Origin: an uncultured virus (IMG/VR IMGVR_UViG_3300042433_000193)
Taxonomy: Duplodnaviria; Heunggongvirae; Uroviricota; Caudoviricetes
Length of the DNA: 64,000 bases
Virus record (IMG/VR): IMGVR_UViG_3300042433_000193
Direction: 5' to 3' (one strand)
The notes beneath the pieces are model-generated. The model was not told where the DNA came from. It worked only from the letters and a program-made list of their open reading frames with translations, and ran no database searches. Position 1 is the first letter of the stretch; every line of letters starts with the position of its first letter. Both the position numbers and the translations under genes were made by a program. This document shows positions 1 through 49,277 of this stretch, one piece after another.

Positions 1-62
1 TGTTTTTGACCTCGATGACCATTTTTATTGATGTGATGGCTTTGACATTCTGGGCATTTCAT
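1..62 (-). CDS. Partial ORF, IS1/InsA-like N-terminal zinc ribbon (runs off window)
   Basis: Manual translation from ATG at 62: MKCPECQSHHINKNGHRGQK; the CxxC...KNG pattern is typical of InsA-like zinc ribbons. Confidence 0.5.
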   Translation of the reverse strand, partial: MKCPECQSHHINKNGHRGQK

Positions 63-126
63 TGTTCTTTCTGCTTATTTTATTTTTCATTTATTTTACC
101 TCATCATCTCTTAATCTGACAACGCC

Positions 127-226
127 ACTTAACAAGTCAAGCCGATTGTTACCACTACAGTTATCCCGATCGCCTTGGTAATCCCCTAGCTTGCAATCTA
201 CTTAACAAGTCAAGCCGATTGTTACC
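127..226 (-). CRISPR. Mini-array: two identical 27-bp repeats with a 46-bp spacer, directly after tnpB
   Basis: acttaacaagtcaagccgattgttacc at 127-153 and 200-226; the tnpB stop codon (222-224) lies inside the proximal repeat. Confidence 0.7.
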
Positions 227-1898
227 CAGTCTCCCAGAGTGTAAGCTGCGTATAGCCTGCGTTGACTGTTTGCGCGGGTTGCGAGTGGATCGACCTTTTC
301 CTTGTTTTTTTCTTGGGTGTCACTGGCTCGGAGGTCAAAACCAGTAAGGTTTCGAGGGTTTCTTCCCCAAGTAACAATCGGCTGGACTTGTCAAGTAATT
401 CCTCCTGCGCTGATTCCTTATCGAAATCCTTCAGAGGCTTAACTTCCCCGGTACAAGCCGGGTAGCTTCTTACGAAGTCTGCTTTCCCTAAGATGTTGAT
501 TGCGGCGGCCACATCTCTGGGTAAAGTACATCCACACTCTAAACATTTATGGGTGCGGGTTGATAAACTTTTTTTAACACGATTGCCACAGCGAGGACAA
601 TCCTGACTGGTGTAAGCTGGTTGAACTTTGATAAACTCTCGGTTGGGAGTTTTCATTTTCGTTTCAAGAAAACCGGTTAATTGTCCTAAACTAGCATCAG
701 CAAAGGATTTATTTAATCCCCCTTTGGCTTTCGCGTTATTGCGTTCGTAGCCTTTACCGTCTTCTCTTTTTTTCGGTTTAGGTCGTCGCATTAAATTCTT
801 TAAGTTGAGGTCTTCTACGGCTACAGCGCCATGATTTTTGACAATATCGGTACTTAGGGCATGATTAAATCCTTTGCGTTGTCTTGCTATTTTTTCGTGA
901 GTTTTAGCAACTTTAGCACGAGTTTTAGCGAGATTTTTGCCGTCTTTATTTTCCCCTGCTTTATACTGTCTAGCGGTTTTTCTTTGCAGTCTTGCTAGTC
1001 TTTTTTGCTGTTTTCTATAGTATTTGGGCGGGTCAATTTGTTGGCCGTCGCTGGTACTAATTATATATTCTAGTCCTACGTCAATACCGATTGCTTTATC
1101 GGAATCAGGTAGATCATCTACTTCAAATTCACCAAATAGACTTAGATAATATCCCGATGGGTATTTAATAATTGATACGGTAGAGGCTTTTCTGTCACCC
1201 CACCGAATGTCTAAAGTATTGTTGACAATCTTTAAATCGCCTAATGTTTTACCACAGCTACCTATAGATATTTTATCCCCTTTTCTAACAGCGCAATTGC
1301 TGATCTCAGAATAAAGAGATTTAATTTTATCTTCTTTTCTTTTAAATCTAGGAAGTTTTCTGTCTAAATTCTTTTTATCGAGTTTGGTGTAAGCTTTCCA
1401 GGAATCAGCAAGCTTTTTTAAAACCCCTTGGACAAAAGCCATAGGGATGTCCTTGCATAGCTCTGGACATTTTTCTTTTGTAATACAGCCACATAACCCA
1501 AAATAATTATCAGATTTTAACCGCCGTTGAATAGGAATATGAACAGGATAAGAGTGACCTGCTTTTTGTCTTTTTTCTCTAGCTATCTGTATTTTAACTT
1601 TTTGCTTGCCAGTTAAATATTTAGGGGTGTAAAGGGGATTAGGAAGGGATTTACCTTTTTCGTTTTTCAGGGAGTCAATAAATTGAGGTTTTTTAGCTAA
1701 ACGACGTTTAACCCGTTTAACTGGTTTTCCTGTTATTTTCTCAAGCTCGTCGTAATACTTATTAAGCTGATATTCCATCAGTAGCTCTAGTCCAAAATTC
1801 CAGACAGCTTTAAGCTCGTCCATCCAGCGATCAATATAGGCTCGCTGAGTGGCATTAAGGTTAAGTTTTATGTCCGCAATAGTTTTCTTGACTAGCAT
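222..1898 (-). CDS. tnpB: RNA-guided endonuclease TnpB (IS200/IS605 OrfB-type, Cas12f-like), enlarged to 558 aa
   Basis: N-terminal OrfB-type helix region; RuvC-I IGIDVG, RuvC-II AVEDL, YTSQDCPRCG...CLECG zinc finger, RuvC-III RDVAAAINI; no adjacent tnpA. Confidence 0.92.
   Translation of the reverse strand: MLVKKTIADIKLNLNATQRAYIDRWMDELKAVWNFGLELLMEYQLNKYYDELEKITGKPVKRVKRRLAKKPQFIDSLKNEKGKSLPNPLYTPKYLTGKQKVKIQIAREKRQKAGHSYPVHIPIQRRLKSDNYFGLCGCITKEKCPELCKDIPMAFVQGVLKKLADSWKAYTKLDKKNLDRKLPRFKRKEDKIKSLYSEISNCAVRKGDKISIGSCGKTLGDLKIVNNTLDIRWGDRKASTVSIIKYPSGYYLSLFGEFEVDDLPDSDKAIGIDVGLEYIISTSDGQQIDPPKYYRKQQKRLARLQRKTARQYKAGENKDGKNLAKTRAKVAKTHEKIARQRKGFNHALSTDIVKNHGAVAVEDLNLKNLMRRPKPKKREDGKGYERNNAKAKGGLNKSFADASLGQLTGFLETKMKTPNREFIKVQPAYTSQDCPRCGNRVKKSLSTRTHKCLECGCTLPRDVAAAINILGKADFVRSYPACTGEVKPLKDFDKESAQEELLDKSSRLLLGEETLETLLVLTSEPVTPKKKTRKRSIHSQPAQTVNAGYTQLTLWETG
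371..396 (-). ncRNA. Anti-repeat (tracr/omegaRNA scaffold segment) inside the tnpB 3' coding region
   Basis: gtaacaatcggctggacttgtcaagt matches the reverse complement of the array repeat at 24/26; on the minus-strand RNA one difference is a G-U wobble. Confidence 0.7.
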
Positions 1899-1934
1899 GG
1901 CTTTTATGGATCGACCTTCTTTTATTCTTATTTA

Positions 1935-1964
1935 AATCTACCATAAGCTTTATAGAAATGTCAA
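1935..1964 (-). promoter_or_regulatory. Sigma70-type promoter for tnpB
   Basis: Minus strand TTGACA-18nt-TAGATT; a similar copy (ttacttgacatttcta...) precedes the 1974-2342 ORF at about 2386-2420. Confidence 0.55.
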
Positions 1965-1973
1965 GTAAGAAGT

Positions 1974-2342
1974 CTAAAGATTTTTTGGGATACCAGTCCC
2001 TGCATCAGAACCTATAGCCCAACCCTTATAAAAGTTAAAGGCGGTAGTATCAATATAAAGAGAAAACCCTATAGCTTCCCAGCATTCTAATAGCCTTAGT
2101 ACATCAACAGTCTGAACCGTATAATTTGATCCTGTATTAGTAATAAGAAATTTTTCAAAAATTTCTGGGGCAACTAAAACAGAGCAATAGCTAGTATCGT
2201 TAAATTTACCAGATTTTTTGGCTAATTCAGAAGTAATTGCGATCAAAATCTCTTTTGTAAGTAATCTTTCTTGCGATATATTGCAACTATCTAAGTTAGT
2301 CCAAGCGGTAAATTTAACATAATTAGATCGGGGATTAAACAT
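1974..2342 (-). CDS. Hypothetical protein
   Basis: 122-aa ORF with its own TTGACA promoter. Confidence 0.55.
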   Translation of the reverse strand: MFNPRSNYVKFTAWTNLDSCNISQERLLTKEILIAITSELAKKSGKFNDTSYCSVLVAPEIFEKFLITNTGSNYTVQTVDVLRLLECWEAIGFSLYIDTTAFNFYKGWAIGSDAGTGIPKNL

Positions 2343-2409
2343 AACTTATAGTAGAAAAAGGTGCTAAACTATATTTGACTAACTTAAATTTACTACAAGC
2401 CTACTAGAA

Positions 2410-2550
2410 ATGTCAAGTAAAAATTATTATCCTCTTAACGTCCGTACATCAGAATCAGAAGAGAAAAAGCTAAAAAACTACTGTAAAGCCCAAAAGCGGT
2501 CAATAACCGAGGTAATCCGGGAATTGATTAGAAGTTTACCCGATAACTAA
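2410..2550 (+). CDS. Ribbon-helix-helix (CopG-like) DNA-binding protein, 46 aa
   Basis: Manual translation MSSKNYYPLNVRTSESEEKKLKNYCKAQKRSITEVIRELIRSLPDN; followed by hairpin and T-tract at 2584-2609. Confidence 0.65.
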   Translation: MSSKNYYPLNVRTSESEEKKLKNYCKAQKRSITEVIRELIRSLPDN

Positions 2551-3406: not shown

Positions 3407-4414
3407 ATGCCTATAAAATCTTTGACAACAAGACAAGCCCGGTTCCTTAGACTGGGTATAATTCGCAAAGGGGGAGAAAAAAAAGAAAACCCTAAAAGAC
3501 CTGGCACTCTAATAAGCGGAGATGATTTAGAATATTTTCGCATTGATTCTGATATTCAAGGAATCAATGAAAAATTTACCGCTATTTACGGGAAAGAGCC
3601 TAAGCAATTAGATTGCTTATTACCTTTTCCTTATACAGACCAAGTATTTCCTTGTTGGATGGAACAGTGGAATGATAAAGATTTAAAAACCTCTGGGTTA
3701 ATGATTCGGTGCGACGAGGAAAAGCAACATATCTACCAACAAGCTGGCAAAATGATTGCCACTAATCCTATCCCGTGCAAACGACAACAAAATCCTGACG
3801 GAAGTTATTCAGGGTGTAAATGCAAGCAAGTTGGGCGATTGCAGATTGTTTTACCTAAATTAGGTGAACTAGGATACTTTGAAGTCGAAACCCATTCAAA
3901 GTGGGATATTATCGGACTAACAGAGCAACTACTAGCTATTGAAACATCGGCTGGTAGTTTGATTGGTATCCCTTTTCTATTAGAACGCGGGTCAAGAGAG
4001 CTATCTTATCCCTTACCAGACGGAAAAAGGGGACGAAAGACTTTTAGTCTTTTATCAATCCGTGTTCACCCTAGCAGAGCGTCTCAAGTTCTAGAAGTCA
4101 TTGAAACAAAAGCCTTTCAACAATTTACGGGAAATGTAGAACCTGCCAAAACTCTAACTCCTGCGTCAACGGGAAACGTAAAATTGTTCAACGCTTCGCA
4201 ATCACTGTCAGAGGATCGCAAGCAGGCTGGAATTACTTGGGCTGTAAATCAAGGATTACCTCAACCAGAAGCTTTGCAAATCGCCCAACAAGCAACCTCT
4301 GAAAAAGAATTGGCCGACCTCCTAAAAAAAGCTATAGACGCAAGGCTAAAGCCAGTAATAGAAGTTTGCAGTGAAAATATTGATCCTGGTGAACTTCTCA
4401 GTGAAGATTTTTAA
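3407..4414 (+). CDS. Phage recombination-related protein (Gp3/RDF-like family, tentative)
   Basis: LGIIRKGG...DLEYFR N-terminus, CDEE...PC...CKCKQVGRLQIVLP pattern; AGGAG RBS. Confidence 0.5.
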   Translation: MPIKSLTTRQARFLRLGIIRKGGEKKENPKRPGTLISGDDLEYFRIDSDIQGINEKFTAIYGKEPKQLDCLLPFPYTDQVFPCWMEQWNDKDLKTSGLMIRCDEEKQHIYQQAGKMIATNPIPCKRQQNPDGSYSGCKCKQVGRLQIVLPKLGELGYFEVETHSKWDIIGLTEQLLAIETSAGSLIGIPFLLERGSRELSYPLPDGKRGRKTFSLLSIRVHPSRASQVLEVIETKAFQQFTGNVEPAKTLTPASTGNVKLFNASQSLSEDRKQAGITWAVNQGLPQPEALQIAQQATSEKELADLLKKAIDARLKPVIEVCSENIDPGELLSEDF

Positions 4415-4869
4415 TTAGTTGCCAGTTGTCAGTTGTCAGTTATCAGCAACTTATTAGGAGTAAATCAATGTCTGTGTTCCCAGTTTTCAAAATAATCAAA
4501 ATGCTCCGATCTCCAGAAAATGACATGACGGATTTTATCTTTTTAGGACAACAATATCGGTTAATAGCAAGGCCAATAAAATACTGGAAGTATTTTCCGT
4601 TTTCTCCGAGGTTTCGTGGTAAGCGTTTTTTTTATCAGTGTCCGTGGCTAACCATTTTTTCTTTACACAGCGCTGATCCTAGCGTTTTGTTAGACAATGA
4701 AAGTAATTCACTTAAAAACTATTAGGAGTAAACCAATGACACACCAAAAAGAATTAATGAAAGATTGGAGTTTAGAACGACAAGTTAAAGCTTTATCTAT
4801 CGTGGCTCCTAATTTACATCTTTTTATGGAATATAACCCAGAACAGTTAATGGCATTAAGGAGTATTAA

Positions 4870-5289
4870 ATGAATCTGAATCTCTTAAGTCGTGATTGGT
4901 GGGATAAACTGACTTCCCAGCAAATACAAGAAATCTTAGTTGAAAGCAGCAAAAACCAATGGAAAGTTTTAAGTACAGGGCAAGTCGAAAATATTTGTTT
5001 GCATGGATTGGTAGCTAACCTAGTTTTTAGTGTAGGTATTGATCAAGTACAGCAATTAAGGGCAGATTTTGAGATTACTTGCGATTCTGGCAAGACTAAA
5101 AAAGTAATCAAGATTAATTTAACATTTGTAGAATTGAAATCTACAAACTTGCTATTTGAAACATTAACAAGTTTATCGGAATCAAATAATCCGTATATAT
5201 GGATTAAAGGTAAGGCGATTAATCTTCCAGAAATTACGATTCTTGTTAACGAATGGGGAAAACGCTATGAAGACCTAAAAATGCCTTAA
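4870..5289 (+). CDS. Hypothetical protein
   Basis: 139-aa ORF with AGGAG RBS. Confidence 0.65.
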   Translation: MNLNLLSRDWWDKLTSQQIQEILVESSKNQWKVLSTGQVENICLHGLVANLVFSVGIDQVQQLRADFEITCDSGKTKKVIKINLTFVELKSTNLLFETLTSLSESNNPYIWIKGKAINLPEITILVNEWGKRYEDLKMP

Positions 5290-9107: not shown

Positions 9108-11996
9108 ATGGTAACACAAAGCTCTAACCGTGTCAAGATCGACCAAAACAATCCTTGCCCCCACTGTGGTAAGCCTGATTGGTGCTATATGTACACTTCC
9201 GAGGACGGCAATTTACTCTCGGTCTGCAACCGAGATCACGAACCCGCACCAGGATGGGAAAAATCTTCTAAATTAGATAGTCAGGGCAAGCCAATCTACT
9301 ATTTTAAGAAAGAAGTCAAGTTTTCTGGCTATAAAAAAGAAAAAATCCAATATTTTCTTTATCCTCCCCTTGCTAGTGGGGTGAGAATCCGCGTGTACCG
9401 GAAGGACTATCAAGAGAATGGTATCTGGAAAAAGGATATTAAGCAGCAACATTCTACAGATAATGGTGAAAATTGGAAATGGGGCATAGATGATATTGAG
9501 TACAAAGATATACCTCTTTATCGTCAAGACCGCCTAGAAAAGGCTATTAAAGAAGGGACCCAGATATTTGTAGTAGAAGGCGAGACTAAGGTAGAAAGGC
9601 TTGAGTCGTTTGGGCTGGTTGCCACTTGCAATATAGGCGGATCAAAGAAATGGCAGTCAGATCACACGAAAGCTTTGAAGGGAGCAAATCTGATTTTATG
9701 CCCTGATCGCGACAAAGGGGGAGTGGCTCACTGCCAGAAAATTTATCAAGATTTCCCCGATGCAAAATGGCTTTATGCCTATCCAGATTCTCCTTTGTGG
9801 AATCATTTACCAGATTCTCAAGGGGTAGATATTCTTAATTGGATTGAAGAAAAGAAGGTAACTCTCGATACATTGCTAACTGCGATAGTTGATAAACCAA
9901 AAGAAACAAAAGAGAGCAAAGAAAAAGAAGTCACAGTAACAGAAACGATGACTTTTCAAGACCTAATAACAGCTATTGACGGCTGTATTGGTCAGGAAGA
10001 AATCACCCGAACTCAGTGGCAAGAAAAAGTTGATCTGTGGGCAAAAGCCACTGGTAAGAAACCATCGGACATACGACATTTAATTGAAATCCGTAAAACA
10101 GAAATAGCAGAAGGGGACGCTATCAAATCAGGATTAGAAGGGTTCCTGAAAGGTAAGCATTATCAGCAGAAAGAGATTGATCTTTTTGAGATACTTCCGA
10201 AACCTTTAGCCGAAGCGATTATAAGCCGTGCCAAGACATTAAATCAACCCCCAATCAGATTACTGCATTCTTTATGGCCAATACTAGGAGCTATTTTAGG
10301 AAGTCGGTTTGCAATTAACCTCCGAACTACTGTAAGAGAAAGGGAATGCTGGAAGGAATACCCGATATTCTATTGTGCAGATTTGGGCGGGGTTTCCACT
10401 GGTAAAACTCTCACTCAAAACGAAGTTTGTCGGGTTTTGAAAAGAAAAGATTTAGCCGAGCAGAAAAGAGTTACTAAGGAACAATCCACACTAGACGATC
10501 TAAAAGCTGCGTGGCAAGAGATGTCAGCGTCAGATCGCAAGGCAAACAAAACAAACGCTGAAATCAACCCTCGTCTTTATGAGAAAGAACACTGTCAGGC
10601 GCGTCGGTGGTTTTACGATGAAGGCACTCTTGATGGCATCTTAAAAACGATGTCCTCGCAACCTTCTTGGCAAGGTGGGGTAGTCGTATATGACGAATTA
10701 TCGGGATTTTTTGAAGGATTAAATCAGTACCGATCAGGTGGTAAAGGTAACGACCGGCAACGAGACTTAAGCAACTGGAATGGCCCTATCCGAAATACTT
10801 TTGACCGCGTAAACAAAGACAATCGATACTATTTAGATGGGCAAACACTTAATAAATTAGGTGGGATACAAGTCGAGAAACTCAGGAAATATCTTGATTT
10901 ATCTAATGATGTCGATGGGGCAGTTTCTCGGTATCTTTTCTTGCTACACGAACCCCTTGATCCTCGTCCTGGTAAGCCGCCAGAAGACCCTAATTCTATC
11001 GATGAGTGTATCGAAACACTGGTCAATCAAATCAGTGGAATTAGCCTAGAAGCTGATGAAAATGGGATTATCGATCCTTATAATTGCTGGTTTAGCGAAA
11101 TCGGAGAAAGTTATGCCTGGGGTATTAAGTATCACTACGAGATACTTATTAAGAAGTATCGAGCGATTAATCCATCATTTGCTTCCTATCTAGGAAAGCA
11201 AATGAAGACTTTTTTAAGGCTTACATTAAGCATCCATCTTCTGAATTGGATATTTGATCCAGATAATACTAATCTTTACAGTATTCCTGTACAAACAGCC
11301 ATTAAAGCTGCTAAGATGACCGACTTCTATATCAGTCAATTCCTGACAATTCAAGGAGTTACGTCTCAGGACGAAAATCCAGTACAGGGAATTTTATCCG
11401 AAATCTGGGAGATCGTTAAAAGCGCAGGTCAAATCAAACCTCGGGACGTTGCCCAAAAATTCGGCGGGCGTAAAATTAATGGGGAAAAAGTAAATACTTC
11501 TATCGCCCGTACCCTACTTACTCAGCTAGAAAACGCTGGTTATGGACGACTAGAAATTAAGTCAAGGGGTATGGTGTTGCACTATCAAGAGCCAAAAGAA
11601 TTAGAAACTTTTGAGATAGAAGATTCTCTGGAATATCAATCGGAGATAAAAGAAGAAATTGTTCAAGTTGCCAGTCCCACTTTCACACACCCAAAAAATG
11701 AATCGATCCCTGATTCTGACATAGTAGAAGTTGAATCGGAGCCAGTAATCGATGAGTTATCGGCTGATGGTGTACACATTGATAGCCTTCCTGATCTTGA
11801 GAAAGAAAAGGTGCTAGTGCGGACGGCTGCACCTATAGAGATAGGAGAGCGAACTATCCCACCAAGAGCGGTCGGAAAAGTTATAGAAGCAACTTTTGAT
11901 AATCAATGGCTTTTGAGGGTAGAAACTGTTTTAAATGGGTCTGTGATCATTTTTACAATTCCATTTTCTGATTGTTACCTAGATATAAGTACCTGA
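9108..11996 (+). CDS. Primase/replication protein: Zn-binding, TOPRIM and DUF3987-like P-loop domains
   Basis: PCPHCGKPDWC; VVEGE and CPDRDKGG TOPRIM motifs; GGVSTGKT Walker A; VVYDELSG Walker B. Confidence 0.85.
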   Translation: MVTQSSNRVKIDQNNPCPHCGKPDWCYMYTSEDGNLLSVCNRDHEPAPGWEKSSKLDSQGKPIYYFKKEVKFSGYKKEKIQYFLYPPLASGVRIRVYRKDYQENGIWKKDIKQQHSTDNGENWKWGIDDIEYKDIPLYRQDRLEKAIKEGTQIFVVEGETKVERLESFGLVATCNIGGSKKWQSDHTKALKGANLILCPDRDKGGVAHCQKIYQDFPDAKWLYAYPDSPLWNHLPDSQGVDILNWIEEKKVTLDTLLTAIVDKPKETKESKEKEVTVTETMTFQDLITAIDGCIGQEEITRTQWQEKVDLWAKATGKKPSDIRHLIEIRKTEIAEGDAIKSGLEGFLKGKHYQQKEIDLFEILPKPLAEAIISRAKTLNQPPIRLLHSLWPILGAILGSRFAINLRTTVRERECWKEYPIFYCADLGGVSTGKTLTQNEVCRVLKRKDLAEQKRVTKEQSTLDDLKAAWQEMSASDRKANKTNAEINPRLYEKEHCQARRWFYDEGTLDGILKTMSSQPSWQGGVVVYDELSGFFEGLNQYRSGGKGNDRQRDLSNWNGPIRNTFDRVNKDNRYYLDGQTLNKLGGIQVEKLRKYLDLSNDVDGAVSRYLFLLHEPLDPRPGKPPEDPNSIDECIETLVNQISGISLEADENGIIDPYNCWFSEIGESYAWGIKYHYEILIKKYRAINPSFASYLGKQMKTFLRLTLSIHLLNWIFDPDNTNLYSIPVQTAIKAAKMTDFYISQFLTIQGVTSQDENPVQGILSEIWEIVKSAGQIKPRDVAQKFGGRKINGEKVNTSIARTLLTQLENAGYGRLEIKSRGMVLHYQEPKELETFEIEDSLEYQSEIKEEIVQVASPTFTHPKNESIPDSDIVEVESEPVIDELSADGVHIDSLPDLEKEKVLVRTAAPIEIGERTIPPRAVGKVIEATFDNQWLLRVETVLNGSVIIFTIPFSDCYLDIST

Positions 11997-48889: not shown

Positions 48890-49277
48890 ATGACTATTAT
48901 CAACGCAACCCCTCACACTATCACCATATTAAACAAAGAAGCTGGCATCACCCAAGATGCAAAAAAAACAGTTTCTGGGAAACAAAGAAGCGATTGTGGT
49001 TTTCAAGGAAATCCCAGCATCCAGGATTCTCCCGCGGGTCAAAATGTCCAACGAACCCGCGGAACCCATTGACGGTATCCCAGTAGAAACCGTTATCTAC
49101 GGGGAGATCGAGGGACTCCCTGAGTATCAGGAGGAGGTGTACTATATTGTGTCAGGATTAGTGGCGGCGGCCGCTAGTAGGCAAGGACGGACGGACTGCC
49201 TTGCCCCTGGTGCAATCGTCCGGGATAAGTCTAATCCCTCGAACGTTCTAGGGTTCTTGTTCTTACAAAAGCCCTAG
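48890..49277 (+). pseudogene. Phage conserved protein split by a frameshift at an A8 run
   Basis: MTIINATPHTITI... (48890, AGGAG RBS) joins ...IEGLPE....YYIVS.LVA...R.DCLAPG..VRD if the A8 at 48961-48968 is read as A7. Confidence 0.65.

Follow-up and report, generated by a model that had tools for sequence, protein, structure and literature searches.

The DNA analysed here is the 64,000-nucleotide (nt) stretch of the uncultured virus record IMGVR_UViG_3300042433_000193, called the window throughout, in which position 1 is the first letter and to which all coordinates refer unless a contig is named. The left end of the window carries, on the minus strand, a gene for a 558-amino-acid (aa) nuclease (222..1898), a short CRISPR array directly behind it, and the end of an insertion sequence (IS). 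The window also encodes a large terminase, a tail assembly protein, a ribonucleotide reductase, a helicase, a primase, and two methyltransferases, and among named phages its DNA matches Microcystis phages alone, at ~83% over short stretches. This gene set and these matches uphold the call of a phage in an earlier note made from the letters of the window alone. In the DNA search of named phages, zero matches fell in window 1-2400, and Rfam returned no relevant family over window 1-2500. A sister phage, G002, is ~96% identical to the window across most of its length.

The effector gene (222..1898 (-)) was identified from its open reading frame (ORF), from Pfam, PADLOC, and NCBIfam models, and from alignments. 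Its product contains the Pfam domains OrfB_IS605 and Cas12f1-like_TNB and passes the NCBIfam model V_cas_c2c8 (NF038192), scoring 374.5 bits with a curated cut-off of 350. In PADLOC, Cas12u2 ranks first of 17 families (1.1e-126) with a score of 421.9 versus 172.8 for Cas12u4 (Cas12n). The general TnpB model NF040570 is matched as well, at 225.8 bits; the IS200_TnpB model (176.5, cut-off 425) and the IS607_TnpB model (86.9, cut-off 350) are both failed. Judged by these models, the effector is a member of the already named type V-U2 (C2c8) family. The RuvC triad D273/E362/D462 lines up with the catalytic residues of a solved TnpB-type chain and is invariant between the effector and a 32%-identical relative, and the zinc finger CxxC...CxxC (C434/C437/C452/C455) is likewise aligned and invariant, in agreement with the earlier description of a 558-aa protein with intact RuvC D/E/D residues. 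No transposase family was found by Pfam in the five neighbouring ORFs, so that the reported lack of an adjacent tnpA also held. The identification of the protein as TnpB stood in part: it is a TnpB-derived nuclease with a real repeat-spacer array, and it is not a plain TnpB, since the V-U2/C2c8 models pass. An IS200/IS605 or IS607 TnpB transposon was considered and rejected on the failed TnpB cut-offs, the lack of a neighbouring transposase, and the presence of a different V-U2 gene at the same site in the sister phage. No Cas family, including Cas1, Cas2, and Cas4, was detected by PADLOC (1e-5) among the 69 window ORFs of at least 85 aa.

Upstream of the effector start, a consensus scan found a promoter-like site, TTGACA-18-TAGATT with a TG before the second hexamer (1935..1964 (-)), a candidate promoter of the effector and the array. 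A 45-nt element spanning this site (1927-1971) recurs at 2379-2423 with 80% identity. The two copies precede the effector gene and a neighbouring 122-aa ORF, respectively, and each contains a promoter-like TTGACA-18-TA.ATT on the minus strand.

Behind the gene, positions 127-153 and 200-226 are identical over 27 nt, as had been reported, and a search of the window for this repeat at up to three mismatches gave three matches where 100 shuffles gave an expectation of 0.00, the third match being the anti-repeat described below. True unit lengths were set by comparison with related loci. Because those loci show a 36-nt repeat unit, the window is parsed into a complete CRISPR repeat of 36 nt (repeat 1, GTAACAATCGGCTTGACTTGTTAAGTAGATTGCAAG; 190..225 (-)), the same unit that occurs two to 15 times in each of 35 related loci, a 37-nt spacer (153..189 (-)) that is unique to the window and missing from the 89 spacers of the related loci, and a repeat 2 stump (127..152 (-)) that has kept its first 26 nt and lost its last 10 nt, AGATTGCAAG. 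These units replace the 27-bp repeats and 46-bp spacer proposed before. The effector stop codon, TAA at 222-224, does sit within repeat 1, as the earlier note had seen. Its first guide was begun 10 nt too early: AGAUUGCAAG still belongs to the repeat, as its 3′ end, and the spacer opens with CUAGGGGAUUACC.

The junction at 126/127 is the end of a Microcystis insertion sequence, inside which the window starts (1..126 (-)). Window 38-126 has 100% identity to three contig ends of the Microcystis genome G658; each match breaks off at 126 and gives way to a different flank, and diverged copies (~82%) show the same behaviour at this position. RNA contigs from two studies (X15 and X19; metatranscriptome) hold window 1-126 or 46-127 and then diverge at 126/127. 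Because the matches stop there with varied flanks and the RNA contigs diverge there, position 126 can be taken as the terminus of a multi-copy host IS that landed in repeat 2. With repeat 2 cut after 26 nt by this IS, the second guide of the earlier note (GGCGUUGUCAGAUUAAGAGAUG) is the terminal sequence of the IS and no guide at all, and only a single complete repeat-spacer unit is visible because the host IS occupies repeat 2. The insertion appears to be recent, given that the IS end is 100% identical to the host copies. The IS end carries a promoter-like site in the consensus scan (122-93 (-)) and the start of a zinc-ribbon ORF (MKCPECQSHHINKNGHRGQK..., from 62 (-)). Pfam gave no match for the ORF of a degenerate relative; going by its motifs, the IS may be IS1-like. 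An exact scan of IMG/VR for the IS end found nothing, and a class-level search around the genome G001 gave weak, short matches only. Any remainder of the array would lie beyond the left edge of the window.

Related loci give the age and normal form of this array. IMG/VR contains 38 loci with a 94-100% identical protein, and an array of the 36-nt repeat lies directly 3′ of the gene in 34 of these and in L001, giving 35 loci; the remaining four of the 38 contain just the 5′ part of the gene. The 35 loci together hold 23 distinct arrays of 1-14 spacers, which are mostly 34-40 nt long; the spacers number 188, and 89 of these are distinct. Two metagenome loci add further new spacers. The arrays have spacers in common in a mosaic manner, and the polarity of spacer gain gave no clear leader end. 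The comparison that the earlier note had suggested, of orthologous loci for constant repeats with variable spacers, thus came out positive. Since arrays of up to 14 spacers accompany near-identical genes, the array must be older than the window genome. The nascent multi-guide TnpB that had been proposed does not fit these near-identical phages, and the two-repeat state on which it was built was made by the IS in repeat 2.

At the same genome site, the sister phage G002 carries a different V-U2 effector of 633 aa that is 32% identical to that of the window (L049 8705-10606 (-)), together with an array of a different, 37-nt repeat, GAAGCAATTAAGCTTAAGCCTTATTAGGGATTGAAAC, here called B-type (L049 7480-8620). 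Some arrays with the repeat of the window (A-type; L035, L028) end in B-type repeat remnants. Given the different effector in the sister phage and these remnants behind A-type arrays, the locus seems to be a place where alternative CRISPR cassettes are exchanged. The last spacers of one A-type array (L017 4929-4964) and of the G002 B-type array (68011-68041) share 31 consecutive identical bases, which points either to array recombination across repeat types or to independent capture of the same target.

Other relatives were found outside these phages. In L093, L094, and L095, from Microcystis genomes (at ~4100-5100), B-type effector genes stand directly upstream of host CRISPR arrays that open with one or two B-type repeats and go on with the host repeat, GTTCCAATTAATCTTAAG.CCTATTAGGGATTGAAAC. 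A small intervening ORF in L094 may be Cas2-like. The layout gives a hint that host adaptation proteins could serve such arrays. The A-type repeat was absent from the three Microcystis genomes searched for it. Two relatives on contigs of cyanobacterial metagenome-assembled genomes (MAGs), L091 (2489-4021) and L092, are 48-58% identical to the window effector, and L091 passes the C2c8 cut-off at 442 bits, with L092 at or near it; both have, in place of an array, a single repeat-like unit (GTTAG...) after the stop region and may be single-guide forms of the family. A phylum-level search for C2c8 around G001 returned only the phage-like contigs of G001 itself, a genome that may be unrelated to the host, so that the search is uninformative on cyanobacteria. 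Elsewhere in the window, a 106-aa protein (48957-49277 (+)) matched the PADLOC model 'Unknown small protein, sometimes fused to CARF' at 8.6e-13.

Within the coding sequence of the C-terminal tail of the effector lies an anti-repeat (371..397 (-)), recognised by complementarity, duplex energy, and fold. The arms 199-225 and 371-397 form a 27-nt inverted pair that is 93% complementary, and in the gene-sense RNA, the anti-repeat and repeat would be joined by 24 Watson-Crick pairs and one G-U pair with one C-U mismatch over 26 positions, exactly the pairing at 25 of 26 positions that the earlier note had counted. When the RNA of 154-420 was folded, the repeat/anti-repeat helix was present in the minimum-energy structure (z = -3.56). 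The stretch between the anti-repeat and repeat 1 (226..370 (-)) encodes the protein tail and, from its position and fold, is inferred to be the body of a putative guide-RNA scaffold. Variation within the anti-repeat among the near-identical loci is limited to two positions, and the haplotypes found there, GA, AG, and AA, all pair with UU of the repeat.

Five locus classes, each with its own repeat, were compared using RNAduplex, with the cognate repeat set against shuffled repeats (30 for class A) and the offset counted from repeat 1. For class A, that of the window phage, the cognate duplex had an energy of -43.0 kcal/mol at offset -188, the best shuffle reaching -26.0. Class D, two metagenome loci (L131/L132), gave -41.3 and -39.7 kcal/mol at offsets -188 and -186, with best shuffles of -34.9 and -28.3; its effectors are of 565 aa, and their best family is C2c8 at 295 bits, which is under the cut-off. 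In both classes, the cognate complement lies inside the coding-sequence tail. Class C, the Aphanizomenon phage CL131, gave -27.1 kcal/mol at offset -178 (best shuffle -30.0), its best cognate site being complementary at 19 of 23 positions. Class B, comprising G002 and the Microcystis genomes, gave -22.7 kcal/mol at offset -206 (best shuffle -25.1), at a site that overlaps a palindrome also found in its repeat, and class E (L127) gave -23.2 kcal/mol at offset -422 (best shuffle -28.3). Non-cognate repeats paired at -18 to -32 kcal/mol at scattered places. A single consensus helix for classes A, C, and D was tried and dropped, the paired parts of the repeat being in different registers, and because of this difference, there is no single covariation model across classes. 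For classes B and E, a short anti-repeat in the gap between gene and array, GCAATCCC, which would pair with GGGATTG, is a candidate. Taken together, the sequence comparison supports, without proving, a tracrRNA-like or omega-RNA-like role for the anti-repeat in classes A and D, where tracrRNA denotes trans-activating CRISPR RNA, and the anti-repeat of the window is probably a tracrRNA-like element.

The motif ...CAGCTTAC.CTCTGG... that precedes the array was also considered as an RNA motif and rejected as such. All the effector variants (window 225-245 (-), L049, L081, L127, L132, L091, and L092) close with QLT[LI]W, or with QL.LNLW, within a few residues of the C-terminus, and in CL131, this peptide lies in another frame than the annotated ORF. 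Because relatives keep the peptide QL.L..W with different codons, the motif is conserved as protein.

Spacer targets were found almost entirely on one element. When a 14-spacer array was compared with three Microcystis genomes, it gave four matches, all on one short contig (L107), an 8,940-nt plasmid-like contig of a single Microcystis MAG, and 23 of 90 spacers have matches of at least 20 nt on it. The window spacer matches L107 2420-2455 at 33 of 36 positions, with mismatches at 17, 23, and 30 and a perfect first 16 nt, and this protospacer lies within a primase-helicase gene with TTA as its 5′ flank. Of the 19 ungapped L107 matches of at least 26 nt, 17 have T at position -2 of the protospacer (binomial p 7e-8) and 12 have it at -1 (p 0.002). 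No comparable bias was seen on the 3′ side, though A was missing at three positions there in the first 15 matches. Sixteen of the 19 protospacers are on one strand of L107 (854-7983) regardless of gene direction, and they are scattered along the whole contig, not clustered at promoters. L107 encodes a tyrosine recombinase, a helix-turn-helix protein, and a 986-aa DUF3987 primase-helicase. Of the 8,000 nt of L107 used as query, 36% align at 75.5% identity with plasmid p1 (6,987 bp) of M. aeruginosa NIES-2549, a match for which an initial reading of L107 as a phage satellite, based on its integrase and primase, was dropped in favour of a small plasmid. Plasmid p1 itself is matched by only three of 90 spacers. 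The window encodes a full-length homologue of the L107 replication protein, a 962-aa primase-helicase (9108-11996 (+)), with 31% identity over 846 aa (E 3e-91) and a much closer likeness in the first ~250 residues. No spacer matches the window itself, its own primase copy included, which bears out the earlier failure to find a protospacer there. The G002 B-type array has two matches on L107, and so two distinct systems appear to aim at the same element. Exact scans of IMG/VR for the window spacer and its protospacer returned nothing, nor did IMG/VR contain relatives of the L107 primase.

Given these results, we consider it likely that the window, from a phage of the bloom-forming cyanobacterium Microcystis, carries a CRISPR-Cas locus of type V-U2 (C2c8), made up of an effector and an array, with no adaptation genes, and with the array cut by an IS. 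In the mechanism we propose, transcription would run from the site at 1964-1935 through the gene and into the array. The anti-repeat (397-371) would pair with nt 1-26 of every repeat, in cis for repeat 1, as in an omega-RNA, and in trans for later repeats, as a tracrRNA does. The guide would be formed by the last 10 nt of the repeat together with the spacer, and the RuvC site of the complex is predicted to cut DNA bearing a 5′ T-rich protospacer adjacent motif (PAM), roughly NTT/TTN from the flanks. By this route, the phage may attack resident plasmids whose replication protein is homologous to its own. Spacer 1 can probably still be matured, since the repeat 2 stump has lost nothing of the segment pairing with the anti-repeat; past the stump lies IS DNA, which is no guide.

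Several results count against this interpretation. The duplex scan found no strong anti-repeat in classes B and E and none in the array-less L091 and L092, and for CL131, the energy of -27.1 is not above the shuffles (best -30.0). The consensus scan found no promoter-like site just upstream of the anti-repeat; because none precedes it, the anti-repeat RNA may come from the transcript of the effector. In favour of the interpretation, contigs from four RNA libraries lie on parts of the gene (190-632, 196-401, and 197-462 among them), but these contigs are assembled, may include DNA, and stop near 196 for a k-mer reason, so that they do not define RNA ends. With respect to targets, protospacers come nearly all from one contig of one MAG, three mismatches separate the window spacer from L107, two whole arrays found no match among PLSDB plasmids at E 0.1, and the 14-spacer array found none among named phages. 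In the available text of the CL131 report, no tracrRNA is reported and the direction is left open (PMC6293099), and in the literature searched we found no test of V-U2 nuclease activity, PAM, or guide maturation.

Four other explanations were weighed against these data. That the locus is a phage-domesticated TnpB only now becoming CRISPR, with the 3′ end of its omega-RNA duplicated to give two guides, is very improbable. The cis order of anti-repeat, ~145 nt, repeat, and guide does resemble an omega-RNA, the protein does match the general TnpB model at 225.8 bits, and birth of an array by duplication of an omega-RNA segment is a scenario set out in the consulted part of a published survey (PMC10691335); however, near-identical genes stand beside up to 14 spacers, repeat 2 is severed exactly at the end of a multi-copy host IS, which makes 'guide 2' IS sequence, and the family is established V-U2. 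The same IS is the basis for a reading in which the window locus is a dead remnant, the insertion having abolished expression or processing of the array and left the spacer non-functional. In its favour, the last 10 nt of repeat 2 are gone, IS DNA with a promoter-like site of its own comes next, and the spacer has three mismatches to the sole target found. We regard this as unlikely, though deserving of some weight: the effector ORF has its full length and 99% identity to the ORFs of phages whose arrays are undamaged, nothing is missing from the promoter-like site, the anti-repeat, repeat 1, or the pairing part of repeat 2, there is no mismatch in the 16 PAM-proximal nt of the spacer, and the perfect identity of the IS end to host copies speaks for a recent event.

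The anti-repeat could instead be a cis-regulatory hairpin, serving the effector as an attenuator or in the stability of its mRNA, or a leftover of recombination with the array, with no role as a guide-RNA partner. The failure to find a separate promoter for it, the lack of a clear counterpart in classes B and E, and the CL131 duplex energy would all be in keeping with this, but classes A and D have different repeats and each has a strong cognate complement at the same offset, and the anti-repeat polymorphisms preserve pairing. A tracrRNA pairing with the repeat is moreover reported to be needed by the related Cas12p, in the part of that preprint available (10.1101/2025.01.20.633832), and we judge a hairpin or relic to be quite unlikely. 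The effector might also bind its targets without cutting them and act as a gene regulator, as the CL131 authors suggested for V-U2 in the text available (PMC6293099). The placement of 16 of the 19 protospacers on one strand of L107 would suit such a role, but RuvC D/E/D is intact and invariant between 32%-identical variants, and the protospacers extend across the whole plasmid and do not sit at promoters, which makes this explanation improbable. Binding without cutting is known for Cas12m, Cas12c, and Cas12k.

The signal taken for 'nascent CRISPR' comes from an array truncated by an IS at the edge of the window. Among the original type V-U subtypes, only V-U2 still lacks experimental characterisation in the literature searched, and the dozens of near-identical effectors with differing arrays constitute a natural experiment. 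From the candidate plasmid target, the putative T-rich PAM, and the in-gene anti-repeat, a guide RNA and an interference assay could be designed for this 558-aa nuclease. Ecologically, the spacer matches suggest that Microcystis phages fight small host plasmids. A broader and rather doubtful extension is that small Microcystis plasmids are parasites or antagonists of this phage family and that V-U2 serves as the counter-weapon, in parallel to phage ICP1 and the PLE, with the scaffold overprinted on the gene and the arrays renewed without phage adaptation genes. On that reading, a homologous primase-helicase would let plasmids exploit or block phage replication, and array renewal would perhaps go through borrowed host Cas1-Cas2.

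The closest published case is the V-U2 locus of the Aphanizomenon phage vB_AphaS-CL131, described, in the available text, with 10 spacers and 36-nt repeats (PMC6293099). Phage-borne V-U2 is therefore already published, and the window locus is a further case. Both phages carry a C2c8-family effector (450.8 bits for CL131, 38% identical to that of the window), 36-nt repeats ending in ...GCAAG, an array after ...CAGCTTAC.CTCTGG..., and no other cas genes. A CL131 spacer was reported, again in the available text, on a cyanobacterial primase pseudogene (PMC6293099), and the window spacer lies on a primase-helicase gene. The two differ in phage and host (Microcystis for the window) and in repeat sequence, in the tail-coding part, which in CL131 is out of frame with the annotated ORF, and in the interruption of the window array by an IS. 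Elsewhere, a 2024 review enters V-U2 without size or PAM, and a preprint remarks on its having been lumped with Cas12f3. The literature searched, outside of which lie most subscription journals, contained no paper on V-U2 tracrRNA, PAM, or target range, or on V-U2 in Microcystis phages.

Cas12p ('Cas12 hacker') is described, in the available part of its preprint, as a phage-encoded nuclease of 500-700 aa, an early intermediate from TnpB to Cas12 that needs tracrRNA and a CRISPR RNA (10.1101/2025.01.20.633832). It resembles the window effector in being a phage-borne miniature, and its structure (PDB 9jfs) is the second-best solved relative (E 8.3e-26), with likeness in the N-terminal part and the RuvC-insert, but the similarity is partial, in three stretches, and the Trp-rich pocket motif is not aligned. 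It further differs in its GTN PAM, as against T-rich flanks here, and in a repeat ending in AAAC rather than CAAG, both as given in the same part of the preprint. Membership of the window effector in Cas12p was rejected on the partial match, the flanks, and the repeat end.

The 2023 survey of TnpB and Cas12, as far as its text was available, derives arrays from omega-RNA segments and lists many array-only V-U variants (PMC10691335), and RNA splitting, a concept from Jin et al. (Cell 2025), is taken here from the available part of a review (PMC13565253). In common with TnpB omega-RNA, TranC, and Cas12n, the window has a putative scaffold over the 3′ end of the nuclease ORF and a guide directly 3′ of it. 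This layout, with the guide scaffold over the 3′ end of the ORF and the guide following at once, is that of Cas12n. The window locus differs from TnpB elements in lacking a transposase, transposon ends, and a single fixed guide. A functional parallel is offered by the Vibrio phage ICP1, which, as Seed and colleagues reportedly described in 2013, carries a complete type I-F CRISPR system with adaptation genes that targets the host PLE anti-phage island. The ICP1 system differs from that of the window in being complete, of type I-F, and equipped for adaptation, and its target is a proven anti-phage island, whereas that of the window would be a Microcystis plasmid. What the two cases have in common is a lytic phage with a CRISPR system of its own and with spacers to a mobile element resident in the host and not to other phages.

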